The notes under the pieces are model-generated. The model searched no databases, was not told where the DNA came from, and saw only the letters and a list, made by a program, of their open reading frames with translations. A stretch of DNA of 64,000 bases from Candidatus Borrarchaeum weybense (GTDB lineage Archaea; Asgardarchaeota; Sifarchaeia; Borrarchaeales; Borrarchaeaceae), in assembly GCA_019057385.1 (NCBI GenBank), contig JAHQJS010000005.1, forward strand, positions 64,001-128,000. Reading direction: 5' to 3'. This document shows positions 1,343 through 64,000 of this stretch, in pieces. A program made the translations under genes and the position numbers. Each line of letters starts with the position of its first letter. Position 1 is the stretch's first letter.

Positions 1343-1356
1343 CTTTCTACTCCCTT

Positions 1357-2455: not shown

Positions 2456-2489
2456 AAAAACAAGTTTCATTTCTAAAAAGCTAGCGAGT

Positions 2490-3923
2490 CTATAATTTCT
2501 TTGAAATGTCGAGAATTCGTTCCATCTTAGTAATACGTTCTTCGAGATTTTTAATTGCTTTATCCTTTTCTCTAATTTCTTTTTCTATCTGATTGAGTCT
2601 TCCGACACCCTCTCTGCTAAAAGGTGCTTTCATGTATTCAGAAGCGATCCAACCAAGATCATGTCTATCAAAATAGTTCTCTTTTGATCCTTCGAGTTTA
2701 TGACCCATTAATGCTTCTGCAAGGTCGTTATCAATGGGTGCTTTGTAGAACATTTTTCTAAAACTCTTTCGAAGTAGGTGCGCCCATATTCGGTCAGGGT
2801 CTAAACCGATTTTCTTAGCACTACGTTTCACAATACGATTTACTGAATCGTGATAGAGAGGTCTACCATTTTCACGATAACTTTCAGAAGCAAATACAAT
2901 GTCGTCATCTTTTGGTTTCCATCCTTCTGTTTCTTTTCTCCACTCGATATAAGTTTTCAATGCTTCAGCAGCTTCGTCTTGTAGGAAGGTATAATAGTAG
3001 GTGAGTTGATAATTAATGAGTTTGGTGTCTATGTCTGATGTAATTTTGAGATGAATAGGAACGGTTAATTTTGGTTCGACAAATGCTTTAATCATTCCAT
3101 ATGTCCAGCGGCGAATACAATTACTTCTAACTCCGCTTTGAAACAAACACAGAATCAATGCTCTATTCCTTAACGATCCTGCACTATCAGCCATACGGTA
3201 GATTTCTTCCTTTTGTGGTATTTGTTGAATACGAGTTCTTTTAGCAGTTCTTTTTACCTTATCCCTTTTGGTAAACGGTATTCTTCGTCGATGATAATCA
3301 AAAAACGATCTTAATACTATATAGATTTTTCGAGCGGTCTCGTTCTTTCCTTCTTTAATATATTTTTGTTTAACTAGCGTATATTTCTTAATTATCTCTT
3401 CTGGTGATAGAGATAAAAGGTCTGGTGGTTTTAGTTTTGAGTGGTCAAGAAAATAATTCATACAACTCAGATAACCGTCGCGAGTACCAGTAGATTTATA
3501 GTCATTTATCCAAAGATTGATTTCGTCGTAATCCAATAGCCAACCATAGACTTTTTCTGTCATGGGAATTTTTACAAAACGACCATACTCGTCTTGACGT
3601 TCTCCTAAAGGTTTTTCTATTTTTTTATTGTGATAACGCAAAAAATTATTTACTGCTGCTCTCATTTTCCAAAAACTACGATCTCTTAATGTTTCTTTTA
3701 GTTCTTTGAAAGTACGGTCAAAAAGAACGCTGATTTCTTCAGGTGTTTGATCTAAAAGTGTTTGTGGTGTGGTGTTTGTCTTTTTGCAGAAATGAGATAA
3801 ATTAGTTATACGCTCTCGCTGAGTGCTTTCTTTATTTGTATCAACAATCCATTCAGTTACAGACTTGAAATTTAAAAGCCAATCATAAGATTTCCGTTTG
3901 CTTCGAGTCAAGATTTTTGACAA
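2490..3923 (-). CDS. tyrosine recombinase/integrase with duplicated N-terminal core-binding domain
   Basis: Catalytic motifs SGVR, HLLRK, MGH, NYF; two similar N-terminal segments (YDWLLNFKSVTEWI / YGWLLDYDEINLWI); C-terminal coiled coil. Confidence 0.9.
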   Translation of the reverse strand: MSKILTRSKRKSYDWLLNFKSVTEWIVDTNKESTQRERITNLSHFCKKTNTTPQTLLDQTPEEISVLFDRTFKELKETLRDRSFWKMRAAVNNFLRYHNKKIEKPLGERQDEYGRFVKIPMTEKVYGWLLDYDEINLWINDYKSTGTRDGYLSCMNYFLDHSKLKPPDLLSLSPEEIIKKYTLVKQKYIKEGKNETARKIYIVLRSFFDYHRRRIPFTKRDKVKRTAKRTRIQQIPQKEEIYRMADSAGSLRNRALILCLFQSGVRSNCIRRWTYGMIKAFVEPKLTVPIHLKITSDIDTKLINYQLTYYYTFLQDEAAEALKTYIEWRKETEGWKPKDDDIVFASESYRENGRPLYHDSVNRIVKRSAKKIGLDPDRIWAHLLRKSFRKMFYKAPIDNDLAEALMGHKLEGSKENYFDRHDLGWIASEYMKAPFSREGVGRLNQIEKEIREKDKAIKNLEERITKMERILDISKKL

Positions 3924-16629: not shown

Positions 16630-17472
16630 ATGTCCAAAAAAATGTCTGACCGAGTTAAGAGGATACAAAATCCTCAGAGAATTCTAAAAGTGGTTGCTTA
16701 TACCGCAATCGCCAAACCGTTAAACGGTTCTCTTCCTAGAAGTAATAATTCGCATTTTTTGAGATTATATCCTATAAAGTATTCTTACAGGAATGGTAAA
16801 GAGGAAAAGGAAGCTTTCTCTATATCGTATTTACTTAAAGGGATTAGAGGAGCTATTAGGCATCAAGTGATGAAGACTTGTTATGATGCTGGTGTGGAGG
16901 TGTGCCACACTAGCGATAAAGCGACCGATAAAGCGGGCAACAGTCTTCTTCCTAAAGGTTTTCATCTTTCGGGTTCTTGTAAGGGCAATGGTGAATGCAT
17001 AGTTCATCAAGTTTTTGGATCTATGGGTACTGAAGGTTTAATTTCTGTCTACGCAGAGCCAATTACAGCAATTTCTCATAAATCGGCTAAAACTGAAGTT
17101 AAAGTTCAAAAAGTCCATATTGCCACTGAAAATCGTGTTTGCATGACTTTTGATAACAAACCTGTCCAAGACTTTGGCGAGCGGTATTTTTCCGGTGAAT
17201 TTACCTTTGAAATTGATGTTACGCGTTGTACAAGTGAACAAATTGGTTTATTGATTGAATCAGTTATTAACATGCAAAGACTAGGCAGAGGATACAATGC
17301 GGGATATGGTAGGGTTCAAATTAAGCGATTTCAATTATTAGAGCGCATAATAAAGAGGATTCCGGAGTGGCAAGAAGATAACTTCATTGTCAAAGAAGAA
17401 CTTAACGAAATTTCGTTAAAAAACGAGGTTGTAGAGGCGATGGAGGCTTGGAATGCTTACGTTAATACTTGA
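16630..17472 (+). CDS. cas7: Cas7-family RAMP (Csm3-like), copy 1
   Basis: KGIRGAIRH helix, Cys/His-rich insert ending CIVHQVFG, thumb HIATENRV, G-rich loop LGRGYNAGYGRV. Confidence 0.8.
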   Translation: MSKKMSDRVKRIQNPQRILKVVAYTAIAKPLNGSLPRSNNSHFLRLYPIKYSYRNGKEEKEAFSISYLLKGIRGAIRHQVMKTCYDAGVEVCHTSDKATDKAGNSLLPKGFHLSGSCKGNGECIVHQVFGSMGTEGLISVYAEPITAISHKSAKTEVKVQKVHIATENRVCMTFDNKPVQDFGERYFSGEFTFEIDVTRCTSEQIGLLIESVINMQRLGRGYNAGYGRVQIKRFQLLERIIKRIPEWQEDNFIVKEELNEISLKNEVVEAMEAWNAYVNT

Positions 17473-18274
17473 AGGTCAAATTGTAACTCCAATTGTCACT
17501 AGGAAAACTGAATTTTATATGGAAGGATGTAAAGCTATAATTAAGCATCCAAGAAGACGTTATTACAATAAAATTAATGCATCTAAGCCGATGTATCCCT
17601 ATTCATTTCAGTGCTATTTAGGAGCTATTGAATTACACTTTAGATGTTCAAATACTGCAAAACTAAAACAGAAATTAAAAGATTTGTTGCAGATTAAAGC
17701 GATAGGGCGCTTTCATAGTGAAGGGATGGGATTGGTCCAATGGATCAAGGGCACCATACATTCGAATTATGAGCCAACTCACACAAAAAATACACGAACA
17801 CTCCGAATTCGCAAAGGTCTTCCTCATAATTTAACAAAAGATACCAAGAAACTGTTATTGTATGCTTTGCTTCATGATTTTGTTAATACGCCTAAACATA
17901 AATCTAAAATTTACATAGAACCGAATCTAGACGGCATAGCGTATTTATGCAACCATCATGATAAAACAGAAGACAGTTTCATTCAGTTATTTCAGAAATA
18001 TGACCATCTAGCGGCCATGATTACAAGAAAGATAAGGTCACCCAGAACTAATAGGTATAACTGGTCTTCCAATAGCAATATTAATTTTGAAAAATTAGCA
18101 ACAGAGATAAAGGAGGTGGCATCCAACATTTGGAAGTTGTATGATTACATCTATCAGAGTAAAGAACTAGAGCAATTAAACGAAAGTTTACAACATGGCC
18201 ACACGTCATTAAGAAATCATTTACTGGTGATAGTCAATTTAATAGTGCATGATTTTCAAAGAAATGAACTTTGA
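17453..18274 (+). CDS. Cas5-like RAMP fused to Cas10-type permuted HD domain, copy 1
   Basis: G-rich loop IGRFHSEGMGLV; LLHDF, H, NHHD, YDHLAA and C-terminal TSLRNHLL. Confidence 0.7.
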   Translation: MLTLILEGQIVTPIVTRKTEFYMEGCKAIIKHPRRRYYNKINASKPMYPYSFQCYLGAIELHFRCSNTAKLKQKLKDLLQIKAIGRFHSEGMGLVQWIKGTIHSNYEPTHTKNTRTLRIRKGLPHNLTKDTKKLLLYALLHDFVNTPKHKSKIYIEPNLDGIAYLCNHHDKTEDSFIQLFQKYDHLAAMITRKIRSPRTNRYNWSSNSNINFEKLATEIKEVASNIWKLYDYIYQSKELEQLNESLQHGHTSLRNHLLVIVNLIVHDFQRNEL

Positions 18275-49953: not shown

Positions 49954-50025
49954 ATAAAGGGGAGACAAAATAACAATACTTTGAAAAACTAATGGTGTTT
50001 TGTCACAACAAATTATTATTTTGAT

Positions 50026-50340
50026 GGTTAGACTTCTTTAACCATATAAATGGTTGGTTAGATATATATTACCTATAGGTGAACCTACTATGAGCATTAT
50101 CATCAACACCAAATACACAAACAACAAACCCTATTATTACGTGTATGTAGTCTATGGTGAAGGCAATAAAGAAACCCATTACATTGGTAGTGCAAAAAAC
50201 CCAATATCATATGAAAAAGCATTGTATAAAGTCAAAGAGATCCTTAAACAAGAAATGCAGAAGAAACTTCACCATGCGGAAACACGAGCCGAGAACTTAA
50301 AGAATGAATACCTTTCTAAATAGGTTAAATATATCTAACC
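50026..50340. repeat. three GGTTA-N8-TAACC palindromic sites
   Basis: 50026-50043, 50056-50073 (TTACC variant), 50323-50340. Confidence 0.7.
50090..50323 (+). CDS. small basic putative DNA-binding protein
   Basis: KYTNNKPYYYVY...KETHYIGS, a beta-sheet motif seen in archaeal mobile-element proteins; AGGTGA RBS. Confidence 0.6.
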   Translation: MSIIINTKYTNNKPYYYVYVVYGEGNKETHYIGSAKNPISYEKALYKVKEILKQEMQKKLHHAETRAENLKNEYLSK

Positions 50341-50384
50341 TATATATGCTGCGTTTTTCTATTGTTATGTTTTCTATAATAGAT

Positions 50385-50969
50385 TCATACTATTTTGACT
50401 GTTCTAAATGCTTTTCTCATTGACTTAATGCTTTTCCGCGCGATTGATTCAGGATAGAATCCTAGAACCGCCTGATTTAGTGCTTCTAGGGATACTTCTC
50501 CGCTTATTCTGCAGAAAGCACCTAAAATTCCTATGTAATTATTACCGCCATAATTTTGATTTGTTAGGCTTTCATCTATTTCATTCATTGAAACTTTGTC
50601 AACATCTACTGTTGCTGTGGAGAATCCTATGCCGAAGAGTTCTATTAACTCGTATGGGGAATATGATGAATTGACAAGGAGAATGCCTGACCTTTTTAAT
50701 CCCTCTGTAACGTCCAATATTTTCAAAAACGAATCATCCAGTACTATGGTGTAATTTGGGCAGCAGATCTGTGGATAAGTAGATAAAAGTTTCTTGCTAA
50801 TTCGAATGGCAACTTTTAGAATCACTTCTGGTGTTGTGGTTTTAGGTTGAAACACTTGGGAACACTTATTCCTATAAGCTATTGCCTCAGCAAGGATCTC
50901 TGCTAATGTAACTACATTCATGTCTCCTCGACCGATTAAGAGAATTTCTTTGATTTTATAAAATGACAT
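50385..50969 (-). CDS. divergent 2-oxoacid:ferredoxin oxidoreductase gamma-subunit-like protein
   Basis: EILLIGRG, IRIS, PNYTIVLD, GLKRSGILLVNS; orphan with no alpha/beta genes adjacent. Confidence 0.7.
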   Translation of the reverse strand: MSFYKIKEILLIGRGDMNVVTLAEILAEAIAYRNKCSQVFQPKTTTPEVILKVAIRISKKLLSTYPQICCPNYTIVLDDSFLKILDVTEGLKRSGILLVNSSYSPYELIELFGIGFSTATVDVDKVSMNEIDESLTNQNYGGNNYIGILGAFCRISGEVSLEALNQAVLGFYPESIARKSIKSMRKAFRTVKIV

Positions 50970-51188
50970 GAGGGTACAACCTTTCTTAGAATAAATTGAA
51001 TCCTGTGTTTTGCTCCTTTTTATCGCATACTTATACTTTGAAATTAAAATTTAGACACTTTTTAATGGATATTTTTGTCTTAAGAACGCAGATTCTAGTA
51101 AAAACATTTGAATAGCGATTTAAAATTAGATCAAATCTTAAAACTTTTTAAGTAATAATAATTGACTTTGTAAATAGCAAATTTTTTC

Positions 51189-51608
51189 ATGGAGGAAAAA
51201 TTTATGCAATTCTCTCAGTTCTCTATAGCATTCCTGATTGACTTTATTGTGTTTGTAGCTATTGTGGCAGTTTCTGTAGCCATAACGTGCTGGCTTTGGG
51301 GCTATTCGAGATACAAATTTGCTTGGGGGTCAAGTATCGTTACTGGAATTGTAGCCGCTGTCGTATGGATTATATTTAGAATGTTACCGCTCGGTCGTTA
51401 TACCTTGGCTATTGCATTTGTTGCAGTCTTTGTAGTGATTCTTCTTGCACTTCGTCACTTTTGGCCTAAATTTTCTGAATGGCCAACAGCGTTTCTCGGT
51501 ACGCTGGTTTGTATCGTTATAGTCATTGTCATTTGGCTGGTAATTTCATTTATCATTGCGGGGCTGGGTTTGATAGCAGGATATCTGCCCCCACTGAGTA
51601 TATTCTAA
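51189..51608 (+). CDS. membrane protein
   Basis: Four hydrophobic segments. Confidence 0.65.
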   Translation: MEEKFMQFSQFSIAFLIDFIVFVAIVAVSVAITCWLWGYSRYKFAWGSSIVTGIVAAVVWIIFRMLPLGRYTLAIAFVAVFVVILLALRHFWPKFSEWPTAFLGTLVCIVIVIVIWLVISFIIAGLGLIAGYLPPLSIF

Positions 51609-51774
51609 CACCAGAATCTAAAAAATTCTTTTCTTTTTTTTTAAGACGGTCATATGAGTTTTTTGAGAAGCTAAAATGAACTAAGAGATAATAAAATTCA
51701 AGACAACGAATGAAGAGCTGAAATAGATTATTATAAAAAAAAGGCGAAAAAGAGAAAAAATGGATCGGGATAGA

Positions 51775-52098
51775 CTATGTAACTTGTGCAATTATTGCAA
51801 GAATAGCGCCTATTATAACGAGTAATCCCCCGAGACCAAGCACAATTATACCAAAGATTAGGGCAAGTATTATGTATACCCACTCATCTAACTGATCTGC
51901 AACGCGGAGAACAATAATTATTATTCCGATAATTATTGATATAGCCGCTGCAATTAAGCCACCAAGAGCACCTAGCGAACTTGGAACACCAAGTCCGATT
52001 CCCACGAAACTCAACGCTCCTTGGACAATCATAAGGATTGCACCGACAATCACTAGTATCCATGCCGCTAATAAAATACCACCAGACGGTCTAGCCAT
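51775..52098 (-). CDS. small membrane protein
   Basis: Highly hydrophobic Gly/Ile-rich ORF; GGTGA RBS. Confidence 0.65.
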   Translation of the reverse strand: MARPSGGILLAAWILVIVGAILMIVQGALSFVGIGLGVPSSLGALGGLIAAAISIIIGIIIIVLRVADQLDEWVYIILALIFGIIVLGLGGLLVIIGAILAIIAQVT

Positions 52099-52340
52099 AC
52101 AATCACCATTTCAATATCTTATTTCAGGTTAGGATGAACCCGATTTCCTAGTATATAACTTGTTCGCATTCAAGCTTGTAGAGAACCATGGACTTAAACA
52201 AATATCATAGAAGAAATCAACTTCAAGAGAATCAAATAATAACTATTTGAACACTATCGTTTTCTAGATCGAATAAGTGCCAATAACAAAGAATAAGGAT
52301 TCTCTAAAATTATATAGAAAAAAAGGAAAAAATAATAGGA

Positions 52341-53699
52341 TTATACTTTTGGCAAGATTTCGAGCGATTTATCGATTTGTTCCTGTGGCATTTCATAGTC
52401 AACAAGGTTTCCAGCGAGATATTCTTCATATCCTTTTAAATCAAAATGACCGTGTCCGCTGTAATTAAAAGCAATCACTTTTTCTTCACCAGTTTTTTTA
52501 CATTTTTGTGCTTCTTTGATCACTGCAACGATAGCATGATTGGTTTCTGGCGCTGGAACGATCCCTTCTGTCTTTGCAAAGATCACTCCTGCTTCAAAGG
52601 TTTCTATTTGATGGTATGCAACGGACTCCAAGATACCTTCTTTTTGCAGTAGACATAAACTGGGGGCGTCTCCGTGGTATCTTAATCCTCCAGAATGAAT
52701 TGGTGGTGGGACAAACTCGTGCCCAAGAGTGTACATTTTCACTATAGGAGCTAACTTACCAGTATCTCCGTAATCGTAGGCATAAGGTGCTCTTGTCAAT
52801 GTAGGAACCGCCTTCGGCTCAACAGCAATAAATCGGATATCTTTTCCTTTCAATTTGTCTGGAACAAACGGATAAAAGAACCCTGCAAAATTACTGCCGC
52901 CTCCAACGCAGCCAAGCATCATATCAGGATATTCCCCAATCTCTTCAAACTGTTTTTTAACCTCCTGACCTACAATTGTTTGATGTAGCAGGACGTGATT
53001 GAGCACGCTTCCTAGACTGTACTTAATTTTATCGTCGTTTAGAGCATCCTCCACAGCTTCAGATATTGCTAAACCAAGGCTTCCAGGATGGTCAGGATTT
53101 TCCTTTAAAACACTTCGTCCGACCTCTGTATTATTAGACGGACTTCGGAAAACTTCGCTGCCATAAGTCTGCATTAATACGCGTCTATACGGTTTCTGGT
53201 CGTAACTGACACCAACCATATATACACGGCATTTTATGTCAAAAAGGGCACATGCGAGGGAGAGCGCACTTCCCCATTGACCTGCACCTGTTTCAGTTGT
53301 AATTTGTTCTACACCTTCTTTCATTGCAAAATACGCTTGGGCGATAGCTGTGTTGGGCTTATGACTTCCCGTAGGGCTGAGATCCTCTCGCTTATAGTAG
53401 ATCTTAGCTGGCGTATCCAAATACTCCTCAAGCCGTTTTGCCCGATATAGTGGGCTTGGTCTACCTAATCGCCTGTAAGCCTCTTGTAACTCTTCAGGAA
53501 TAGGAATGTATCTTTCTGGGGACATCTCCTGTTGTAGAAGTGCAACAGGGAACAAAGGCATTAAATCAGGAGGACCACAAGGTTCTTTCGTTACAGGGTG
53601 TAACGGAGGAGGGAGAGGGGCTGGTAGGTCGGCTAATACATTATACCATTGAGTTGGTAACTCATCAAGGTTTAAGACAACTTTTACACCATCATACAT
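52341..53699 (-). CDS. trpB2: tryptophan synthase beta, TrpB2 type
   Basis: [41 protein letters not shown]. Confidence 0.95.
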
Positions 53700-54035
53700 T
53701 TTCAATCACCTCAAATTTTTTAGATTTCTATTTTTATTTTTCAAAAAAGTTGGAAACGAGGGGGTATCAATAGCTGTTGAAATAGTGGGCTACTGCCACC
53801 GCCAAGAATGCCAGGGATGCCAAGAAAAGTTTGAAAAGCTCAAAGCTAAGTCAATTAAAAATTCAGGAGTAAAATCTGTTGGAGTTTTATAAAAACCTTT
53901 TTCCGGGCAGGGTGGTTTAGCTTCAAGACTGAGAGAAAAGAAAAGACATTTTGTTAAAGCAAATCCCATTGGCGCAATCAAACCACCTAATCTGCCTATT
54001 TCTTTAGGCTTGTTATTTAAATCTTTCTCTGTTTT

Positions 54036-54183
54036 ATTACATTTTTCGTCCCCTGCGAGTCATCCATTCCCAACAATTGAGGCGTCGGACCTCTGAATTG
54101 GTTCAGTCTCATGCACAAGAACGTGTCCCACGTGATATACGAGGAACATACCGCCTTGTAACTCATGTATTCTCTTTCAAAGA
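54036..54183 (-). repeat. long structured repeat R3 (148 bp), putative guide-RNA scaffold
   Basis: 9 mismatches versus 55447-55594; TTTATATA box just upstream on the minus strand (54194-54187). Confidence 0.9.
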
Positions 54184-54351
54184 TTCTATATAAACACCGC
54201 GATTCTGCTAAACCAACTTTTTCTTACCACTTTTCGATCCTGAAAGCAAAGCAGAGCTGAGTTTTCTACAGCTTATTTTTATCCCTCATTAAGTTGCTTC
54301 CTGAAAAAACGAATTTTTACTGCCACTCCTCTCGAAAACAATTTAACGTTG

Positions 54352-54534
54352 TCACTTCTGTCGATTTTGCATCGCTCCCCACCTTGAAGATTTCTTCCTG
54401 TTCGTCAAATTTAACTCATGATGTTCCGCTAGGAGCCGATACAAGTTGTAACGTGGCAATAAAAAGTTGCATTCGAGGCAACAAAATGTTGTTTTAACAG
54501 ATTCAATACAATGATCCATTCTTGTCATGTTCAC
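54352..54534 (-). CDS. possible small ORF coupled to the Cas5-HD gene
   Basis: GTGA overlap with the upstream stop; no recognisable motif. Confidence 0.25.
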   Translation of the reverse strand: MNMTRMDHCIESVKTTFCCLECNFLLPRYNLYRLLAEHHELNLTNRKKSSRWGAMQNRQK

Positions 54535-55343
54535 AAACCACTATTCAAGTCGTCAAGATAGAGATTTACCATTAATAAGAGATGATTTTTCAAAGACGAA
54601 AACCCAAATTTTAACGCTTCGTTGATCTTATCAAGTGCTTGACATTTTCGAATAAAAGTATAAAGGGCATACGGGGAATATTGGCACTTTTCTATCTCTC
54701 TTTTTAATGCATCGAAATTTATCTTTTCTAGTTCAGTCACACGATAACGCGTGAACGCAGACCATCTAAATTTTCGAGAAATCATTGCAGAAAGTCTATC
54801 ATAATACTGAAGAAGAGGGAGAAGAGGCAATTCAGCCTCATCTGTATCATAGTTGTGGTGATTTTCCACAAACTTACGGACTTCTTCATCAAGTATATTA
54901 ACTTCAGAGTAGATTTTGCTCTGATGTCGATTAGTGTGTACGAAATCATGTAGTAACATAGCTATAACTAATGTTTCTTGCACGTTGGAGAGTTTAGGGA
55001 GTTTTTTACGGATCTTAATTGTTCTTGAAATATAGAGCGGATTTTTTTTGAGTTTACTAACAGAAGTCCATAAGATTTGCCCCATCCCTTCACATGTATA
55101 ACTCCCAACACTGTCAATGGCGAGCGCTTCTTCAAGTTTATATTCTGGAACGATGAACTCAACATTTCCATACCATGCCCTAAAGGTCATAGGCGCACGT
55201 CTTTGCCCTACAGTCAATTTTCCGAATACCCTAGGACGACCATTTATGGTCATCGCTCCAATATCGGCAATTCCAAAATGCCTGCGCCTTGAAACGATAG
55301 GAGTTTTTGTATAACCCATTAATTTAAAGTATTTTTGTGACAT
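54531..55343 (-). CDS. Cas5-like RAMP fused to Cas10-type permuted HD domain, copy 2
   Basis: TPIVSR, VGSYTCEGMGQI G-loop, IRKKLP, LLHDFVHT..HQSKIY, NHH, YDRLSA, SSLKNHLL; collinear with 17453-18274. Confidence 0.7.
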   Translation of the reverse strand: MSQKYFKLMGYTKTPIVSRRRHFGIADIGAMTINGRPRVFGKLTVGQRRAPMTFRAWYGNVEFIVPEYKLEEALAIDSVGSYTCEGMGQILWTSVSKLKKNPLYISRTIKIRKKLPKLSNVQETLVIAMLLHDFVHTNRHQSKIYSEVNILDEEVRKFVENHHNYDTDEAELPLLPLLQYYDRLSAMISRKFRWSAFTRYRVTELEKINFDALKREIEKCQYSPYALYTFIRKCQALDKINEALKFGFSSLKNHLLLMVNLYLDDLNSGL

Positions 55344-55446
55344 TTAATCCCCTCTTTTTAGGTCTTATCTCCTCTTGAAACAAAAGAGAGGAGATACAAA
55401 CCTTGCCAAAGTAAACGCTTTTGCAACTTTTATTAGTAAAGTGGGT

Positions 55447-55594
55447 ATGACATTTATCGTTCCTTGCGAGTCATCCTTCCCCAACAATTGAGGCGTCGGA
55501 CCTCTAAATTGGTTCAGTCTCATGCACAAGAACGTGTCCCACGTGATATACGAGGAACATACCGCCTTGTAACTCATGCATTCTCTTCCAAAGA
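55447..55594 (-). repeat. long structured repeat R2 (148 bp), putative guide-RNA scaffold
   Basis: Direct repeat of 54036-54183; internal hairpins GAGG-N7-CCTC and ACGTG-GGA-CACGT. Confidence 0.9.
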
Positions 55595-55717
55595 GATACT
55601 ATTATTAATATAGTACACGTACAGGCGTCAAGAAGGAAGGAGAGGATTAACCTCTCCCTAAAGTAGGACGGTGTTAAAGCAACATCCGTTGGCGCAATCA
55701 AAACCGCCTGTATTTTG

Positions 55718-55806
55718 ATGACATTTTTCGTCCCCTGCGAGTCATCCTTCCCCAACAATTGAGGCGTCGGACCTCTAAATTGGTTCAGTCTCATGCACAT
55801 GAACGT
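55718..55806 (-). repeat. repeat R1 (89-bp core of the long repeat)
   Basis: Near-identical to the minus-strand 3' 89 nt of R2 and R3. Confidence 0.9.
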
Positions 55807-55868
55807 ATCACTCACAAAAGTAAGTGATAGTCCGTTATGAGATGAGAAAAAAGAATGAGATGGAGTTA

Positions 55869-56687
55869 TCATGCAGTCACCGTTTCTTCGTTTTGTTCGT
55901 TTTGTTCGCTAAAATTCAAAGAATCCCTCCAATCCTCGATATTACTGAGAGAGATAGGTTTTTCAGTTGCTTTTTCGACAATTTTATAATTTCCTTTGTT
56001 ATCTTCCGCGACATTGCGAGTAGTTTCGATCTTCTGGAGGTCGAAATTGAAAATCGTGACGCGACCATAACCACTCGCTCGTCCTGCGCCCAGAATCTCA
56101 ACATATAATAGCGATTCCATGAGAAACTTGATTTCTGTATTCGTTAATTTGGTCACATCAATGTAAAAACTGAAATAGCCGCTGAAATAACTCTCCCTAA
56201 AATCTTGGATAGCTATACCATCATAGGTGAGCGCAATTCTGTTTTCACTAGCGATATGGACTTTTTGGACTGGAACTTCAGTTAAGTATTCTTTATGTTT
56301 GATTGAGGCAATAGGATCTGCTAACACATTAATAGAAGATTTCTCGCCAAATGCACCAAAGATTTTTCGCAGAATGCAGGGAGGATCACATGTACCAAGT
56401 GCATGAAAACCAGAAGGGATGAGTCCAGTGCCATCTTTGAATGTCTCCTTTTCACTGGTATGACATACCTCGATACCGCACTCCTGAGCGAGCGCCATAC
56501 AGGCATGTCTTAGCATCCCTCGAATACCTTTGATATAATAGAATTTAGTGTTGAAGGTTTTGTCTCCATTCACATACGGAAGTTCTCCTAACAAAAGCAT
56601 GGTCGAATTTTTTTGAATCGAGGCATTAAGAGGCTTAGCAATAGGGGTAAAAGCATGAACCACTAACTGTTTTTTGATTTTTCTCAT
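55869..56687 (-). CDS. cas7: Cas7-family RAMP (Csm3-like), copy 2
   Basis: IAKPLN, KGIRGMLRH, EVCH...C...CILRKIFG, HIASENRI, LGAGRASGYGRV; collinear with 16630-17472. Confidence 0.8.
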   Translation of the reverse strand: MRKIKKQLVVHAFTPIAKPLNASIQKNSTMLLLGELPYVNGDKTFNTKFYYIKGIRGMLRHACMALAQECGIEVCHTSEKETFKDGTGLIPSGFHALGTCDPPCILRKIFGAFGEKSSINVLADPIASIKHKEYLTEVPVQKVHIASENRIALTYDGIAIQDFRESYFSGYFSFYIDVTKLTNTEIKFLMESLLYVEILGAGRASGYGRVTIFNFDLQKIETTRNVAEDNKGNYKIVEKATEKPISLSNIEDWRDSLNFSEQNEQNEETVTA

Positions 56688-56721
56688 GTTTCTAACCTCA
56701 ATTATAGTTAGTACAAGTACC

Positions 56722-56776
56722 TATATAAACCTTGCTCAAAATAAACACTTTTCCAACTTTTATTAGTAAATTGGGG
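56722..56776 (-). promoter_or_regulatory. cas7 promoter region (TTTATATA box), matched by the guide after R2
   Basis: TATA at 56729-56722, 35 bp upstream of the ATG; GAGGT RBS. Confidence 0.7.
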
Positions 56777-56780
56777 AATT

Positions 56781-56866
56781 AATTGACTTCCTTCTGAGAA
56801 AATAAGTATTTTAAACGGCTTTTAGCAAAAAAATCATTAAAAAAGTAGAACCCCCTTTATAAATAA
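56781..56866. repeat. 86-bp direct repeat, copy A
   Basis: 66/86 ungapped identity to 62135-62220. Confidence 0.7.
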
Positions 56867-57033
56867 CAACGTATTGAGACGATTTGTATTATTGTCTTTT
56901 TAAAAGAATAGTTGAACAATTTAACAAAATGAAACATTCTTGAAGATTCAAAAGGAATAAATTTATGGTCTCAACTGAACTAACACACGTTTTTAAAAGA
57001 ATATGTATACTATAACTGATTCTTAATTAAGTA

Positions 57034-60000
57034 TTAGGGTAAAAGATCCTTTACAGCAACTGGAGGACCTTTTTTCGGTGGTTTATAGATGCCTTCCAGA
57101 TGTTGAAACCGCTCATACATCAAGTGGAGAGTTTCCTTATCTGGAGCGTAGATAAAGGGGACAAAGCGCTTTTTTTCCAACAAAAAACCCTTGAGTTGTA
57201 GTGCGCACCGCCTTATAGCTTCCTTTACTGTCATATATTCTTCTAGATAGTATACCTTTTGAGCGAGTATGTTGTTAACCAATCTCTCAACTTTGTAGTG
57301 TCCATTCCAGTTAAGATGATAGAATCGTTCACGCTCTAGTGTTTTACGTCGAATGAAATCAGTTTTCGCAAATTTATCATGTATACATGCAAAGATGAAG
57401 GCGAACCTGAACAGGGGAAGAAACACCTCTCGGAAGTCAACAACAGTGCCAAGAAAAGATCTTTGTTTTTTCTTATAATGCAATATCAGTTCGTTGGGTA
57501 CCCAGGAGAACCCTGCCTCAGCGAGTGCTTTTCGACAGTAAAAGTTAAGGTGTCGATAGACAGCATTGAGTGCAGCACTAAAGGGAGTTCGCGCCTTTGC
57601 TTCCCCCAGAAGCACCACTGTGGCAATATAGCGGTCGAGGGTACGACTGATGATTTCAAAATAACTGCCCTGAAGCAAATGCTTGGGAACCTCCCAGGCA
57701 ATGCTTTCCACTACGCCTTCAAGACCGCGAAGGTTGTCAATATTGCCCCGCCAATAGAGAAACGTATACGCCACGCGATCCAGTAGTTGGGATAAGAATT
57801 CCTGTGCCTCTGCAGGAGATAATAATCCCTCTTTTTCAAAATGGAGAATTGCATTGGCGAGTCCCATATTTTTACTCATCACCAGCAACCTCGCTAATAA
57901 CTTGCCTCGTTCCGTCTCTCTGAGTTGCTGGGCGGCGTGTTTCAGTTCATCGGCTAATTGTTGTTTCTCGGGTGTCAGTGTATGCTCTACAAAGAATCTG
58001 CCTTCGGGCGAATTAATATCAATGAGTTTTTTACCATAGTTCTTACGAACCTGTTGCGTAACTTCTCCACCCTCGATGATGATGTGACGGATAGCACCGA
58101 TTAAATATCGCTGTGTTGTTTTCCCGTCCTTTAAGGAATGAGTAAATCGTTTTTTCTTAATATCAAGCTGTTCACCGCACTTGACACGGATGATTCGTTT
58201 TGGTCGTCGAATGTAAACCCTTGTTTTTTTAACCCGCGGGACATAATTTCCAGCCTTGCCTAAAAGCAATTCCAACCCTTTTAACATCAAACCTCGGCGG
58301 CCTGGTTTCACCACTAGGTCACCTTTCATGGTTAAATAATAGCGGGAATTGCATTCAGGACAGACGGTGTATTCGTTATAGCGTGACGGCAGTTCCACTG
58401 TACCGTCGGAGTTGCAGAAGTAGCATGGAGTATCATCAAGTGTTTCTTGTAAGACACGAATTGTGCGCTTTTTTAACTTCCGCGCTTTCGTATGATATTC
58501 GCAGGCACCCATCTTTGGTGCGACATAAGACTTTCTTGCTCGCCTTCCAACTTTTGTGTTATACTTACGATTCAACACGCAAATATGTGCACGTTTCGAT
58601 CTGCGACGGTCCTTCATGGAGTTTATCCGAAAGAAGCCACATGAGCCACAGGTGAGGCGCAGATGTTCAGGAAGACTCACATTCACATCTGCCACATAGA
58701 TTTTGGGGCGACCTCGTAACTGCCCTTGAGAGATAAACTGGATTTTTCCCTGGATTCCTAACCGCTTGACATGTTTAACTACCGTGGTGTAGTGAACTGG
58801 TCTTTTATATTGCTTACGAACTTTTGTCGTAATTTGTTTATAAGAAATAAGTTTATACTGTTTAATAAAGGTGTAGATTGCTTCCTGAAGTCCTGGATAT
58901 GGTTTCGGTCTATGTTTTGGATACCAGCGTCTCCTTCTGCCTTTGTTCCCTCTTTCAACTTCAGGCTCTTTGTATTCAGGATTTAGTTTTGAGGTAAGTT
59001 CTTTAGCAACCCTTGCCGCCCTCGGGTCGCTGCGCCCCAGATAGTCATAACTTGCTTCTGCGATCCATGACGCCGTCTTTCTATGTGCTTCTGCATCACC
59101 CGGTCTTATGTTTACCCGAGTTGCCGCTTCTGTGACTGAAGAACCCTGACTGAGTAACCATACGAAAGAGGTATATTGTTGGGTGGTGTATCGTGTGGTG
59201 CTGCTCACTTCATGCATGCTTCGCCCGATTAGTGTAATCACGTGCCGGGAGAATTCCCGTTCTGAGGAGCAGTGATGTGTGGCAAAAAAATTCTTGATCC
59301 TGATGGCGGTTTTAGTCGGCAGTAAAAATTGGCTGGCCCAGCGTCCTTTGGCTGTTGCACTAAACTTTCCACCATTTCTTTTGATAAAACCTTCCTTGAT
59401 AAGTGTGTGAAGGATTCCCTCTCTTTTTTTCTTCGGTTCATCCTGCTTAGGTCGAGCTAACAGTTTCTCTCTTAGTTGTTGTGTAAAGTCTTTCAACTGG
59501 TCGTGGGTGAATGGTGTCAACAGTAAGCGAAGCTCTCCATTTTTGATTCCGCGTGTAGTGGTGTTCTTCTTGACCCACATGAAGAATTTTCTCGTTACGC
59601 GTTTCAAGTCGAATGGGAGAGAGCCTTCGTGCGTTTCGCGCAATAAGGAGAGTAAATGAAGTTCGTTATTGAGCCAGCAAAGCTCCTCCTCATGAGTCAA
59701 GAGTGCGGTATTCATTAGTTCGGACCAATTCTGTAGCAACGCTTTGTGTTGATGCCAGAAGTAATGTCTTTCAAGTTTGAGGAGCAATTGTTTCGTGGAT
59801 ACCGAGCCTCTAGCTATCAGGGTGAGTACAATATCTGCCAAAGAAGAACGAGCTTGGCTTACTATACGATGTTCTTTGACTATCAATTGTCCTTCAACGA
59901 TTTGAATATCCTTTTGCTTCAAAATCTCTTGGTCGTCCCCCACGAAGATCAGATCGGCATAGCCCACCCGATGATGGCGCGGTCGTGCCGCCCTGCCGCT

Positions 60001-61125
60001 CAATTGTATCAACAGTTGAGAGCTGAACATTCCTGCATCGGCAATTATCACCCTTTTGATCGGAAAGTCCACCCCCTCTCCGTATTGAGTCGTTGATAAA
60101 AAGACCTGAAATTCACCCTTCTTAAGTTTTCTCATAGCTTTTTGTTGTTTCTCTTTACTGAGCCCAGCATGGCTGTAGCCAACGGTTAGATTGAGCCCAA
60201 AACTCTTTAGAAAGGTCTGCAATTCTTCAGCGCGTTGTTCAACCTGATTTCGTGTGTAGCAAAAGATATGCACGATTTTAGTCCGCTGATCATCGCCATA
60301 TGAGTGTAGTTCAAAGGTCTTTTTGATCAAGCGAGCGAACAGAAAGCGCTTTTTTCGTTCGATCTGCTCTATTGTGCTGCCTGAAACTCCAAAAGACGAT
60401 ACAATAAGTTTCGACCGCCGTTCTTTGGTATGGATAAGTTGAGCATCGAGCCAGCTTGCCAGTTCCTCAGCATTCCCCAAAGTAGCCGAGAGATAGATGA
60501 TGTGAGGACGAGGTCGCAACCACGCTTTCGCATTGACAATCGCGGTTTCTAGACACGTACCCCGCCCTTTGTTACCCAGATTATGCAGTTCATCGACTAC
60601 AATTAATCCTATCCTGTCTAAAAACGGATACTCGAAATGTTTGGCTAGCAGCCCATTGAAGGATTCGTAGGTGATGATGAGGATATCCGCAGTTTCAAGC
60701 TCTTCAGGAGACGGTCGGTTATCTCCGCTGACCCGGAGGATGGTGCAGATGTCGTGATACCACTCTTTGAACCTGTCATACATCTGATCGATCAGCCGTT
60801 TGGTCGGCTCAAGGATCACACAGCGCATCCCTTTTCCAAGGATGCGGGTGGACACTATTTGGGCGATCAAGGTTTTTCCAGAAGCGGTGGGAGTGTATAA
60901 CACTTTGTCATGTCTTTGCTTACCAGAAAAGCATGCCTCCCATTGAAAGTCATAGAGAAGTTTAATGTCAGCCTGTTCCAATTGTTGACGTATAAATTCG
61001 TAGTTTAACCCTCTTTTCGTCATTGTAAGGAACTGTCCCCTCAATCCCTGTGTCTCACTTATGATGGTTGAAAAGTTCTTTATAAAGAGGGCAAACCTTT
61101 GGATCACTGGCTTGATAACTGTCAC
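57034..61125 (-). CDS. Ski2/Hel308-like SF2 helicase - wHTH - Zn fingers - Cas1-like integrase fusion
   Basis: Helicase motifs PTASGKT, VVDELH, LSAT, HAGL, GEGVDFP, QLSGRAAR; Cas1-like LRGLEG, PFSAALNAVY, ILH, VVDFREVF. Confidence 0.8.
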   Translation of the reverse strand: MTVIKPVIQRFALFIKNFSTIISETQGLRGQFLTMTKRGLNYEFIRQQLEQADIKLLYDFQWEACFSGKQRHDKVLYTPTASGKTLIAQIVSTRILGKGMRCVILEPTKRLIDQMYDRFKEWYHDICTILRVSGDNRPSPEELETADILIITYESFNGLLAKHFEYPFLDRIGLIVVDELHNLGNKGRGTCLETAIVNAKAWLRPRPHIIYLSATLGNAEELASWLDAQLIHTKERRSKLIVSSFGVSGSTIEQIERKKRFLFARLIKKTFELHSYGDDQRTKIVHIFCYTRNQVEQRAEELQTFLKSFGLNLTVGYSHAGLSKEKQQKAMRKLKKGEFQVFLSTTQYGEGVDFPIKRVIIADAGMFSSQLLIQLSGRAARPRHHRVGYADLIFVGDDQEILKQKDIQIVEGQLIVKEHRIVSQARSSLADIVLTLIARGSVSTKQLLLKLERHYFWHQHKALLQNWSELMNTALLTHEEELCWLNNELHLLSLLRETHEGSLPFDLKRVTRKFFMWVKKNTTTRGIKNGELRLLLTPFTHDQLKDFTQQLREKLLARPKQDEPKKKREGILHTLIKEGFIKRNGGKFSATAKGRWASQFLLPTKTAIRIKNFFATHHCSSEREFSRHVITLIGRSMHEVSSTTRYTTQQYTSFVWLLSQGSSVTEAATRVNIRPGDAEAHRKTASWIAEASYDYLGRSDPRAARVAKELTSKLNPEYKEPEVERGNKGRRRRWYPKHRPKPYPGLQEAIYTFIKQYKLISYKQITTKVRKQYKRPVHYTTVVKHVKRLGIQGKIQFISQGQLRGRPKIYVADVNVSLPEHLRLTCGSCGFFRINSMKDRRRSKRAHICVLNRKYNTKVGRRARKSYVAPKMGACEYHTKARKLKKRTIRVLQETLDDTPCYFCNSDGTVELPSRYNEYTVCPECNSRYYLTMKGDLVVKPGRRGLMLKGLELLLGKAGNYVPRVKKTRVYIRRPKRIIRVKCGEQLDIKKKRFTHSLKDGKTTQRYLIGAIRHIIIEGGEVTQQVRKNYGKKLIDINSPEGRFFVEHTLTPEKQQLADELKHAAQQLRETERGKLLARLLVMSKNMGLANAILHFEKEGLLSPAEAQEFLSQLLDRVAYTFLYWRGNIDNLRGLEGVVESIAWEVPKHLLQGSYFEIISRTLDRYIATVVLLGEAKARTPFSAALNAVYRHLNFYCRKALAEAGFSWVPNELILHYKKKQRSFLGTVVDFREVFLPLFRFAFIFACIHDKFAKTDFIRRKTLERERFYHLNWNGHYKVERLVNNILAQKVYYLEEYMTVKEAIRRCALQLKGFLLEKKRFVPFIYAPDKETLHLMYERFQHLEGIYKPPKKGPPVAVKDLLP

Positions 61126-61176
61126 AAAATCCCCTCTTTATAAATTAATTATAACCTATTGACAGTAGTGGCAACA

Positions 61177-62124
61177 ATGTCTTTCGAAGAACACCTTAAG
61201 CAAGGAAATGAGTTTTATGAACAGAAACAATACCGAAGGGCGTTAAAACATCTCACAAAGGCTGCAAAATTAAAACCAAAAGACTATCAACCTTGGCAGA
61301 AATGTGGAGATATTTATTTTACTTTGCACATCTATCAGAAGGCAATCAAATGTTGGAAAAAGGCGTTTGCGAAAAAACCTGACGAAATGTCACCCTTGGT
61401 CGGCATAGCTAATTCATACGGATTCTTGGGCGAATACGAAAAAGCCATCAAATACTGTCAAAAGATATTGAATACACAACCAAACTTTCCTTTAATTAAA
61501 CTCTTGATGAGCAATATAAAAGATGTACAAGAACATTCACCTCTTACCGATGAAGAGGTAGCAAAAATAAAAGAAGCAGATTCAAAAAAGGTCATCACAA
61601 GTGTCGTAATCCGTGGTATAGACTATTATGTTATTAATAACACATTAAAACTTCGCGATCTAAATATCAAAGATATTAAACACATCAAAGGATTGGAAAA
61701 TCTTACCAATCTCCAAGAACTTGATCTAAGCGGGAATAAAATATCAGTAATTGAGGGATTAGACACACTTTGCAATCTTCAAGAACTTAATTTAAGTGCG
61801 AATAAAATTACTATGATACAAGGTTTAGATACCCTTACCAAGTTACAAGTTTTAGAACTTTACGACAACCAGATCAATAGGATAACTGGACTGGATAACC
61901 TTACGCAATTGAAAAAGTTATATCTTAATGGGAACTCGATAGAAACAATTGACGGAGTGGAACAACTCACGAATTTGGAAGTTTTAAGCCTTGCAGATAA
62001 CCCTCTATGTGAGGAAGATCGACGCGTGTACGAACGAAGTGTGACAGCTATGGATGCCCAGTATTGTGTAAAATATTGCCAGAAAAAGATGTCGATATTT
62101 TCTACCAAGAGTCCTAATAACTAA
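61177..62124 (+). CDS. TPR + leucine-rich repeat (SDS22-like) protein
   Basis: Three TPRs followed by LxxLxxLxLxxNxIxxIxGL repeats. Confidence 0.9.
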   Translation: MSFEEHLKQGNEFYEQKQYRRALKHLTKAAKLKPKDYQPWQKCGDIYFTLHIYQKAIKCWKKAFAKKPDEMSPLVGIANSYGFLGEYEKAIKYCQKILNTQPNFPLIKLLMSNIKDVQEHSPLTDEEVAKIKEADSKKVITSVVIRGIDYYVINNTLKLRDLNIKDIKHIKGLENLTNLQELDLSGNKISVIEGLDTLCNLQELNLSANKITMIQGLDTLTKLQVLELYDNQINRITGLDNLTQLKKLYLNGNSIETIDGVEQLTNLEVLSLADNPLCEEDRRVYERSVTAMDAQYCVKYCQKKMSIFSTKSPNN

Positions 62125-62134
62125 ATAGAGAATC

Positions 62135-62220
62135 AATAGACTTCCTTTTATGATATAAAGTGATTAAAAAGGCTTTTAGTTGAAAAATCAAAGAAAGAGT
62201 AGAACCCTCTTTGTAAATAA
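62135..62220. repeat. 86-bp direct repeat, copy B
   Basis: 66/86 ungapped identity to 56781-56866. Confidence 0.7.
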
Positions 62221-62612
62221 TATGAAGACTAAGAATGTAAGTTGATGAGATCTGAAAATATTTATTTTGTTGATTTACAGATCTCTTCAAATTAATTAGT
62301 CATAATTAACTTTTCAGAAAATTTATGTAGGAGAATCCATATTACATTTTAGTTAATCATAAGAAGCGATATTAAGAAGTTACTATATGAAAGATTATTC
62401 TGATTTAAATTTTACTTTCACCCATCACACTCTAACTCTTATTTGGGTTACATTAAATGTATTAATTATGAAGTTTAGTTGTGCATTTTTGTCAAAATAA
62501 AAATGATAATAATGCAAGTATGTGCTATCAAATAAGATGAGGGGCAGAGTTTACTCTTTTTAATGGGGAAATTCAATCTTCATCTTAACAATGATTTTAG
62601 AGAGTGATAAAC

Positions 62613-63308
62613 ATGGGAGCGATCGAAGGGTTTGTAGTAGGTATTGCCTCTAATGTAGCTTATGATTTAATCAAAAAGCTTTCAAGAATTGAAATATTCA
62701 AGCAGATACCAATAAGAACTAGTTTCAGTCTTGTAATTAATTTTAGAGAAGGTATCGAGGTTATTGAAATTGATAATAATTTGACTAAGACATTTCGAGA
62801 AGAGTTTGGAATCAAAAAAGATCAGAAGAAAGTACCATTTATTGAAATTGATAATCTAAAATTATATGTACTTATAGACTACCATTATCTTGAAGATAGC
62901 GAAAAAATCATTGATGCTTTGAATGATATCTTTGAAATAAGAGAGGAAGATGCAGTTCAACCAGAATTCATAGATGCATTAACCATACAAATTTTTCCCG
63001 ATGATACGAAAGAATTAGATGACATATTAATGGTTATGGATGTTTTGAAAGATATAAAGAGACTTATTCAACGTGATTACAATATTGAAAAAGATTTGAT
63101 CTGGCTACGCTTGGATGTTGATGATGAAAAATCAGCGATCTTAATACAAAAGAAACTTGTTGAAAGTTTTCCCGAATTAATTATTATTAAAAATAAAGAT
63201 ATGCAGAATAATGTTTTTTTGAAAATAAAAGATACTAGTGACTTAGAATTAAAACAAATAATAGATGTTCTAAAATCTAACAGAATCAGAAAAATACTAC
63301 ACATTTGA
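62613..63308 (+). CDS. hypothetical protein
   Basis: Long AT-rich ORF, no recognised motif. Confidence 0.6.
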   Translation: MGAIEGFVVGIASNVAYDLIKKLSRIEIFKQIPIRTSFSLVINFREGIEVIEIDNNLTKTFREEFGIKKDQKKVPFIEIDNLKLYVLIDYHYLEDSEKIIDALNDIFEIREEDAVQPEFIDALTIQIFPDDTKELDDILMVMDVLKDIKRLIQRDYNIEKDLIWLRLDVDDEKSAILIQKKLVESFPELIIIKNKDMQNNVFLKIKDTSDLELKQIIDVLKSNRIRKILHI

Positions 63309-63317
63309 GATGATTTA

Positions 63318-64000
63318 ATGGTTTTTGTCTGCCGAGTTTTGAAAATTATGCCAAGATATGATGATCAAGTCAAGCAATTATTGAAAAAACCATCTGAAAT
63401 AGTATTTGATACAATAAGACAAAGTGAACTCATTGAATTAAAGCTATACATAGATGAACCTGCTGAAGAGAACGATTTTGGCTTTTTAATAACAGCCTAT
63501 GTTGATATACCTCAAACATTATGGAGTAAAGATACAGGTACTTATTCTACGAAAATCACAAAAAAACTAGAAGTTCAAATATTTACTACTCCTGAAGTTG
63601 GAAACTATTTAGTCGTATTTGCATCAAATATTCTTGTAAAGGAATTTGTAAATTCTGTAACTAAGATATTAAATACAGTTGAATGGTTTAAGCCAGTATT
63701 AATAGATACTGACCGAAAAGAGGAAGAGATAAGAAATGAGTTAGGCGATTTTAGGCGTGTTTACGTGAAAGATATGGATGATGATCTTGTAAAAACAGCA
63801 ACAATGGGTGGTCTAAGACTAGAATTGTCGTCAGATTATGCTAGATATATTAGAGATTATGGGGGTAGGCTAAGTGCAGTTTCGCTTATTTATGAAGGTA
63901 ATTGGATGATGATAACGTTTAGAGGAATTTTTTATTCACCTAGTAAAGATGCCGAAAGTAGGAAAGTTGAAATAATTCACAACTTACTGAAACTTCTAAA
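63318..64000 (+). CDS. hypothetical protein, truncated by window end
   Basis: Open frame MVFVCRVLKIMPRYDDQVKQLL... running off the window. Confidence 0.6.
   Translation, partial: MVFVCRVLKIMPRYDDQVKQLLKKPSEIVFDTIRQSELIELKLYIDEPAEENDFGFLITAYVDIPQTLWSKDTGTYSTKITKKLEVQIFTTPEVGNYLVVFASNILVKEFVNSVTKILNTVEWFKPVLIDTDRKEEEIRNELGDFRRVYVKDMDDDLVKTATMGGLRLELSSDYARYIRDYGGRLSAVSLIYEGNWMMITFRGIFYSPSKDAESRKVEIIHNLLKLL

Follow-up and report, generated by a model that had tools for sequence, protein, structure and literature searches.

The 53-nt segment at positions 55394-55446 is likely the guide of a scaffolded guide RNA, through which the effector of an ARAMP (Asgard RAMP) system would bind and repress the promoter of its own cas7 gene. 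This segment lies in a 64,000-nt stretch of the Candidatus Borrarchaeum weybense genome, which we refer to as the window. The pairing between guide and target is strongly supported, and the register of its mismatches, the boundary of the RNA handle and the structure of the RNA are very likely, being shown by sequence comparison in the absence of structural or biochemical data. That the target is DNA, that binding leads to repression, and that particular proteins contact particular parts of the RNA are all inferences, made without expression, processing or binding data.

Results

The window carries an ARAMP locus

The genome carrying the window spans 4.18 Mb at 37% G+C, and the window corresponds to G000:C5:64001-128000. 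On its minus strand we found, in this order, a helicase-Cas1 gene, a 346-nt spacer, cas7, two copies of a scaffold repeat (C and B), a gene that we term RAMP-HD, and a third scaffold copy (A) (Table 1). The helicase-Cas1 protein matched the Pfam families DEAD (2.8e-27), Helicase_C (1.2e-14) and Cas_Cas1 (3.9e-9; residues 984-1261), as well as the NCBIfam models of Hel308-type helicases and of cas1. The cas7 product matched Pfam RAMPs (1.5e-7) and PADLOC Csm3 (2.2e-6), and its nearest relative by sequence is the type III protein Csm3. When its AF2 model (pLDDT 85) was searched with Foldseek, the top 50 matches were all Cas7 subunits, belonging to types VII, I-D, III-E, IV-A3 and III-A (best E 1.9e-7).

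The RAMP-HD protein (AF2 model, pLDDT 86) combines a Cas5/Cas6-like RAMP (residues 1-108) with a Cas10/Csm1-type HD domain (residues 119-270). According to VIA-align, the C-terminal part resembles 6ifk_A (Csm1; residues 2-217; Z 8.5), and the N-terminal part resembles chain 7xfz_B of a type IV-A Csf complex (Z 6.6) and Cas6 chains (3qjj_A, Z 5.9). Residues H132, D133, H140, H162, H163, D182 and H254 are invariant among 35 homologs, and the HD nuclease motif is apparently intact. No large subunit was evident for the effector of the window.

ARAMP systems were introduced by Makarova et al. 2020 (CRISPR J; PMC7307682) and are summarized in PMC8730458 and PMC12669027 as array-less CRISPR derivatives with an enigmatic mechanism. 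With its helicase-Cas1, its Csm3-like Cas7 and its RAMP fused to a Cas10-type HD domain, the locus in the window is an ARAMP system. The host is an Asgard archaeon, as expected: the closest named homologs come from Candidatus Borrarchaeum sp. and from Promethearchaeota MAGs, and homologs are present in 22 of 400 genomes of the phylum. The diverged Cas7 and Cas5-like RAMPs, accompanied by a nuclease, agree with the description as well, although the nuclease here is of the HD type, whereas HNH and PD-(D/E)xK nucleases are the commonest in ARAMP systems (PMC12669027). A distinct Cas1 is also present, and the helicase-Cas1 fusion occurs in 7 of the modules of this genome. No short-period CRISPR array was detected in positions 40000-64000, the only 24 kb searched for one, and the 149-nt repeats found there are not CRISPR-like.

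Table 1. Features of the ARAMP module in the window, in minus-strand order (positions are those of the window)
Feature	Positions	Strand	Description	Evidence
Helicase-Cas1 gene	57034..61125	-	Hel308/Ski2-like SF2 helicase with C-terminal Cas1 domain, 1363 aa	Pfam, NCBIfam
Target of guide B	56723..56776	-	54 nt just upstream of cas7, with the TATA box at its end	Alignment
cas7	55869..56687	-	Csm3-like RAMP backbone subunit, 272 aa	Pfam, PADLOC, AF2 and Foldseek
Scaffold copy C	55717..55865	-	Begins 4 nt past the cas7 stop codon	Repeat search (D1); CM R1, 136 bits
Guide C	55639..55716	-	Guide of ~55 nt, GC hairpin and T-rich tail; not promoter-directed	Repeat search, sequence inspection
Scaffold copy B	55447..55594	-		Repeat search; CM R1, 150 bits
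Guide B	55394..55446	-	53 nt matching the cas7 promoter	Alignment, masked genome search, blastn
Hairpin closing guide B	55367..55395	-	Followed by the RAMP-HD Shine-Dalgarno sequence and ATG	
RAMP-HD gene	54531..55343	-	270 aa	AF2 model, VIA-align, residue conservation
Scaffold copy A	54035..54183	-	Terminal unit, with its own TATA box upstream	Repeat search; CM R1, 151 bits

Guide B matches the promoter of cas7

We counted guide positions from 55446, the first base past the conserved end of the repeat (...AATGTCAT, last base 55447). Positions 2-53 of guide B (55445 to 55394 on the minus strand) align to 56775 to 56723, with substitutions at positions 6, 24, 30, 36 and 50 and a single 1-nt gap after position 40; position 1 is not paired with the target (A versus C). 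The four mismatches at multiples of six (6, 24, 30 and 36) are all C in the guide. Within the window alone, the probability that 4 of 4 mismatches would fall on the 6 sixth positions available within positions 2-40 is 1.8e-4. A blastn search against the entire 4.18-Mb genome gave the guide-target pair E = 1.5e-11. When every sixth position was masked, guide B matched its own cas7 promoter at 33 of 34 positions, and the only other sites in the genome reaching at least 25/34 were copies of the guide and the cas7 promoters of two close paralogous modules.

The target starts 89 nt upstream of the cas7 ATG (target position 1 is 56776) and ends in the TATA box TTTATATA (56730 to 56723), ~35 nt from the ATG; the Shine-Dalgarno sequence of cas7 is GAGGT, and no transcription start has been mapped. 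Since guide B has the sense of cas7, its only possible partners are the template strand of the DNA and an antisense transcript, and we have no indication of the latter. The guide copy itself lies ~50 nt upstream of the start codon of the RAMP-HD gene.

The sequence preceding the target has features of its own. The segment between helicase-Cas1 and the target (56777-57033) is conserved among modules and, 9-17 nt ahead of target position 1, contains a AAAGGAAGT-like motif. A diverged direct copy of 56776-56866, 91-98 nt long and 76-77% identical, is found at 62130-62220, 5.3 kb upstream, on the far side of both the helicase-Cas1 gene and a TPR/LRR gene. The homology breaks off precisely at target position 1, and such a copy exists only in the module of the window.

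Mismatches follow a six-base register across modules

Promoter-matching guides were recovered in eleven modules. Seven of these belong to this genome, and the other four come from a sister genome, a Borrarchaeum assembly and a metagenome. Wherever a scaffold immediately precedes the RAMP-HD gene, the next ~50 nt match the module's own cas7 promoter, and mismatches concentrate at multiples of six (Table 2), with hypergeometric p-values per module between 0.056 and 1.6e-6. Pooling one representative from each of five lineages, 24 of 34 mismatches fell at multiples of six when positions were numbered from the scaffold end (binomial p 4.9e-12, assuming independence). No other period or phase was comparable, except period 3, which contains 6. 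The pooled p-values overstate independence, since the modules share ancestry; the bases at sixth positions nevertheless vary between lineages, and these positions have therefore kept changing despite the shared ancestry.

Table 2. Guide positions mismatched with the cas7 promoter of the same module, in modules other than that of the window
Module	Mismatched positions
C3_93k	6, 12, 18, 22, 24, 28, 36
C4_340k	6, 12, 18, 24, 28, 36
C4_422k	6, 8, 42
C4_524k	6, 12, 15, 24, 30, 36, 42, 48, 49
C4_753k and C4_905k	Like C4_524k
G308:C46 (sister genome)	Identical to C4_524k
G308:C9 (sister genome)	6, 12, 16, 17, 18, 30, 33, 36, 42, 48, 54
L054 (Borrarchaeum assembly)	2, 4, 6, 17, 18, 20, 24, up to an indel
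L071 (metagenomic ortholog)	6, 12, 15, 18, 24, 28, 36

Over the five lineages, guide and target agree in 164 of 173 cells at non-sixth positions, compared with 10 of 31 at sixth positions. Despite wide sequence divergence between lineages, guides have kept matching their targets: 32 of 39 non-sixth positions display two or more different matched guide-target states across lineages, and compensated changes are seen within lineages at positions 8, 15 and 26. The target spans the TATA box in every lineage, at guide positions 38-45 in some and 47-54 in others. In the guide copy of the DNA, the TATA box is altered in 4 of the 5 lineages and intact in two group I modules of this genome and in the metagenomic ortholog L071. 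Two or three lineages carry a 1-nt indel between guide and target (after position 40 in group I, near position 29 in L054), which is hard to reconcile with a rigid Cas7 register.

An origin of the periodicity in coding sequence, through codon wobble, was excluded: mismatches at even and at odd multiples of three number 24 and 2, respectively.

No clear PAM was evident beside the nine targets compared, which are few and closely related. Their flanks are A/T-rich, with A in 7 and T in 2 at position -3, where the handle has C/G. Matches to scaffold model R1 and guide-promoter matches were both confined to this genus and its close metagenomic kin: among 24 ARAMP-like loci of other genera (Cas7 37-52% identical, searched with 1.5 kb of flank), we found neither a guide-promoter match in ungapped comparison nor an R1 scaffold. 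These loci may rely on different RNAs.

A preliminary description, made from the sequence alone, had proposed the alignment, its five substitutions, gap and unmatched first position, and the four C residues in the guide; all held on realignment. So did its claims of a 5' handle, a guide of ~50 nt, the same sense as the locus transcript and coverage of the TATA region, and its protein calls, cas7 upstream and cas5-HD downstream, which we assign to a Cas7 backbone subunit and to a small RAMP with a Cas10-type HD domain. Its central claim, that mismatches in a six-base register mark a genuine Cas7-bound guide, is supported by the evolutionary signature in eleven modules of five lineages. It had also stated that homologs without 6-nt periodicity would refute this claim; the homologs do show the register, together with guide-target co-change.

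The guide is carried by a structured scaffold RNA

The scaffold is a 140-150-nt repeat, present in the window in three copies of its 149-nt version; its core occurs in 22 copies in the genome, within about eleven paralogous modules. The aligned copies of this genome share a fold with a hairpin at the 5' end, a long-range closing stem and inner helices; the 11-nt tail after these elements is single-stranded. In the alignment 97% of cells are paired, and 7 of the 9 pairs of helix 1 (the 5' hairpin) show covariation. Several invariant U-G pairs form on the minus strand only, which fixes the RNA strand. The 3' tail of scaffold B, ...AAAUGUCAU, constitutes the 5' handle of the guide. From the sequence comparison, and without processing data, we consider it very likely that the last 8 scaffold nucleotides (AAUGUCAU) act as a crRNA-type 5' handle. 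A search of positions 50000-64000 against Rfam with a permissive E-value threshold returned no family and no CRISPR repeat match.

In most modules the guide is followed by a closing hairpin, whose sequence is unrelated between modules; no clear closing hairpin was visible in module L054. The usual order of a module is helicase-Cas1, cas7, scaffold, RAMP-HD, scaffold. Terminal scaffolds are preceded by their own TATA box and followed by ~50 nt that vary between copies, and in most copies the terminal unit ends with a hairpin and a T-rich tail. In standard modules, the other scaffold follows the stop codon of cas7 with no TATA box in between, and therefore a single autorepressed transcript may carry cas7, the guide RNA and the RAMP-HD gene. 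The module of the window is rearranged: it includes unit C, with a non-promoter guide and a terminator, and its unit B has a 5' part of the terminal type with a TATA-like element of its own. Depending on the module, one to three units lie between cas7 and the RAMP-HD gene.

Several arrangements of these units are worth recording. In the sister-genome module G308:C9 (L052/L067), positions 1299-3033 hold three tandem scaffold-guide-hairpin units from cas7 to RAMP-HD and one more after it. This arrangement is array-like, with repeats of ~140 nt, and the promoter-directed guide is always in the unit adjoining the RAMP-HD gene. In the window, guide C (55660-55716) resembles 53952-53988, located ~47 nt beyond the terminal scaffold A (27/31 ungapped, with single-nt gaps); the same resemblance was found as repeat D7 (guide C 55672-55702 against 53952-53982). 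The core common to guides A and C is antisense-like to cas7 codons (53958-53983 against 56297-56322, 22/26), which may be due to chance.

Cytosine is enriched at sixth positions, also in guides not directed at the promoter

In the promoter guides, C occupies 18 of 34 sixth positions and 24 of 187 other positions; in the promoter targets, C is found at 1 of 34 sixth positions. The fifteen other guides of the genome show the same preference (45/120 sixth positions versus 93/600 elsewhere, p 2e-7), with C peaks at positions 12, 18, 30, 42 and 48 and none past 48. So do thirteen non-redundant guides from other genomes and metagenomes (30/104 versus 89/520, p 0.009). The periodicity of C thus indicates that all post-scaffold segments share one 6-nt register, running from the scaffold end over ~48 nt, a length that fits eight Cas7 subunits. 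On the basis of this shared register, we argue that the post-scaffold segments are element-encoded guides rather than arbitrary flanking DNA. The enrichment suggests a preference for C, either in the pocket of Cas7 that receives the flipped base or through selection against pairing.

With sixth positions masked, the terminal and extra guides had no second site of at least 25/34 in their own genome, except for weak nearby matches. For four terminal guides (G000:C4:338832, C4:1005737, C3:91583 and C4:424000), the best match anywhere in the genome lies on the same strand, 0.1-1.3 kb downstream. The mismatches of these nearby matches lie mostly at multiples of three (most clearly in 2 of the 4), which is consistent with diverged coding sequence, as in diverged copies of the adjacent host gene, and not with a 6-nt register. 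The two extra guides of G308:C9 had no other site in that genome at up to 3 mismatches, and three guides had no exact sixth-masked match in a viral contig collection.

Related loci

Additional loci related to the module were observed. At 16675-18256 on the plus strand, the window holds another cas7 / RAMP-HD pair, which is divergent (46% and 37% identity) and lacks helicase-Cas1; R1 gave no scaffold match near it. A further pair (~47-50% identical), again lacking helicase-Cas1, resides at 6253-7768 of L069, a contig of GCA_027051165.1, within a region resembling a head-tail virus (capsid, portal, terminase), with only a marginal R1 match (14 bits) directly after the pair. In L060 (2568-7810) we observed a decayed variant in which helicase-Cas1 is followed by RAMP-HD and cas7 is absent. 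Module C3_65k (G000:C3:64937-65846) has lost the RAMP-HD gene and the internal unit; its Borrarchaeum ortholog L054 has kept both, its guide-target match is degrading, and its helicase-Cas1 region comprises three separate ORFs with no family match on record. Outside the window, the 16S rRNA match at G000:C5:332562-335234 extends over 2673 nt against a model of 1533 positions, probably owing to one or more large insertions or introns.

Discussion

A model of autorepression

In class 1 effectors, the thumbs of Cas7 flip guide bases out at intervals of six, starting the count at an 8-nt 5' handle; this geometry rests on structures of Cascade, Csm/Cmr and Csf, which are also among our Foldseek matches. 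The mismatch pattern is what such a geometry predicts, the evidence here being an evolutionary signature only. We propose that the ~140-nt scaffold, the 8-nt handle, a guide of ~48-54 nt and the closing hairpin form one RNA unit, whose guide would be held by about eight Cas7 subunits, each sixth base being flipped out and unpaired. The RAMP-HD protein would probably cap the end that bears the handle, the role of Cas5 in other class 1 effectors. Pairing of the guide is predicted to involve the template strand of a 54-bp stretch with the cas7 TATA box at its end, so that the bound complex would occlude the core promoter, block TBP/TFB and reduce cas7 transcription. In most modules the co-transcribed guide and RAMP-HD gene would be lowered as well, closing a negative feedback loop. 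Given the full-length pairing and the apparently intact HD nuclease, some unidentified factor must then prevent self-cleavage. That type III Csm3, the nearest relative of this Cas7, has known RNA targets counts against reading the target as DNA.

Alternative readings

Helicase-Cas1 could have a part that simple feedback does not include. A bolder reading, which remains possible, holds that scaffolded guides are the missing targeting part of an RNA-guided Cas1 system: hard-wired guides in Cas7/RAMP-HD would bring helicase-Cas1 to the edge of a matched site, where it would insert the element or new guide units, and the promoter guide would double as feedback brake and internal anchor. If true, CRISPR-associated transposons would have a counterpart that derives from CRISPR and is based on Cas1. 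A related reading, in which repression is a mere side effect and the effector parked at its target, just past the helicase-Cas1 gene, marks a site for the action of helicase-Cas1 (integration or homing of the segment that bears helicase-Cas1 beside the effector cassette, or the addition of new scaffold-guide units), appears unlikely to us. In its favor, a promoter guide is found in 8 of 9 modules having both helicase-Cas1 and cas7, compared with 1-2 of 9 cas7 modules without helicase-Cas1; the diverged pre-target copy ends exactly at target position 1; the number of units between cas7 and the RAMP-HD gene is variable; and the best matches of four terminal guides are nearby, downstream and on the same strand. 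Against it, the long-term co-variation of a co-inherited guide and target points to recurrent physiological use, the TATA box is covered in every lineage despite register shifts, and the extra pre-target copy is confined to the module of the window.

A plain promoter duplication, the alternative raised in the preliminary description itself, would make 55394-55446 a second cas7 promoter that drives RAMP-HD, kept similar by shared factor sites or by gene conversion. The location of the copy ~50 nt upstream of the RAMP-HD start codon speaks for it, as does the TATA box left intact in two group I modules and L071, which could drive the RAMP-HD gene. However, neither factor binding nor gene conversion predicts a 6-nt register starting from the scaffold end. 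Duplication also cannot account for near-random sixth positions beside 95% identity and co-variation elsewhere, or for the C enrichment at sixth positions of unrelated guides, and the TATA box of the copy is altered in most lineages. Simple duplication thus does not explain the pattern, and we regard it as very unlikely.

We also give very little credence to an RNA target as in type III, in which the Csm3-like filament would bind or cut an antisense transcript over the cas7 promoter. The sequence of Cas7 is nearest to Csm3 and the HD domain is of the Cas10 type, both in line with this reading. Nonetheless, it requires a plus-strand transcript through 56723-56776, for which no obvious promoter was seen (judged by eye, without an archaeal promoter scan); the match stops at the TATA box instead of tracking a transcript; and type IV Csf2, which is also type III-like, binds DNA, Csf being among the fold matches here. 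Finally, a CreTA-type addiction or safeguard circuit, or a self-recognition decoy that occupies the effector instead of tuning Cas levels, might be suggested by the full-length pairing, since RNAs that tune expression typically pair only in part, but it is very improbable, as cas7 itself follows the target and we saw no small gene resembling a toxin in the 346-nt spacer between helicase-Cas1 and cas7.

Comparison with known systems

Autorepression through a guide is already established for CreR/cr-like RNAs and for tracr-L; the system described here, with autorepression as our preferred reading, is a similar circuit and not a member of the CreR family. CreR and cr-like RNAs, encoded by degenerate mini-CRISPRs, autorepress cas promoters in types I-B, I-E, I-F1 and V-A (10.1101/2023.03.10.532045; PMC10120712). 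In I-F1 cr-like RNAs, mismatches at spacer positions 6 and 12 are harmless (PMC10120712), and the survey in the same study reported no regulatory mini-arrays for type III. As in CreR, an effector-bound guide is encoded within the cas locus and is complementary to the promoter of an effector gene. Unlike in CreR, degenerate repeats are absent, and the guide sits on a structured scaffold of 140 nt, with a hairpin specific to each lineage closing it. Pairing covers 40-54 nt except at sixth positions, in contrast to the partial, PAM-proximal pairing of CreR. The effector is derived from type III, and the system lacks a canonical array that would supply crRNAs in competition with the regulator. Of the two functional claims in the preliminary description, autorepression remains an inference, without expression or binding data, and the analogy to CreR/CreA holds for function only, given the absence of CRISPR repeats and pairing that is full-length rather than partial.

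Other systems share individual traits. Like the proposed RNA, tracr-L of Streptococcus pyogenes Cas9 joins a scaffold to a guide without array processing and represses its own operon (PMC8730458, PMC10120712), repression being inferred in our case; it differs in its class 2 effector, its 11-nt match and the lack of a Cas7 filament. In type IV-A, Csf and DinG provide a type III-like Cas7 filament that binds double-stranded DNA and silences without cutting, together with an SF2 helicase (PMC11519345). The ARAMP module likewise pairs a type III-like Cas7 filament with an SF2 helicase, its DNA binding being inferred, but type IV-A relies on ordinary CRISPR arrays, Cas6 and a large subunit, and has neither a Cas1 fusion nor an HD domain on Cas5. 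The homing and atypical guides of CRISPR-associated transposons (PMC11656645, PMC12774636) are also hard-wired, mismatch-tolerant and located inside a mobile element, a likeness that bears on the terminal guides and on the Cas1 reading. Those transposons use Tn7-type transposases and CRISPR repeats, whereas the only integrase-like protein here is helicase-Cas1, and transposition has not been shown.

Implications for ARAMP systems

The summaries of ARAMP (PMC8730458, PMC12669027) mention no RNA, and we found no description of one in the open-access literature searched, which excluded the text of Makarova et al. 2020. Here, a guide RNA family is delineated with its handle, register, length and one target. 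The self-match works as a natural mutagenesis experiment, which indicates RNA guidance in this ARAMP system. It pinpoints the RNA (scaffold, 8-nt handle, ~48-nt guide and closing hairpin), the Cas7 register and one bona fide target, and with RNA and target thus defined, reconstitution is directly testable. It also revealed an unexpected preference for C at flipped-out positions and gives a handle on the role of the linked helicase-Cas1. If confirmed, the circuit would bring a type III-derived effector into the range of guide-mediated self-repression, with pairing over the full guide length and, apparently, DNA as the target.
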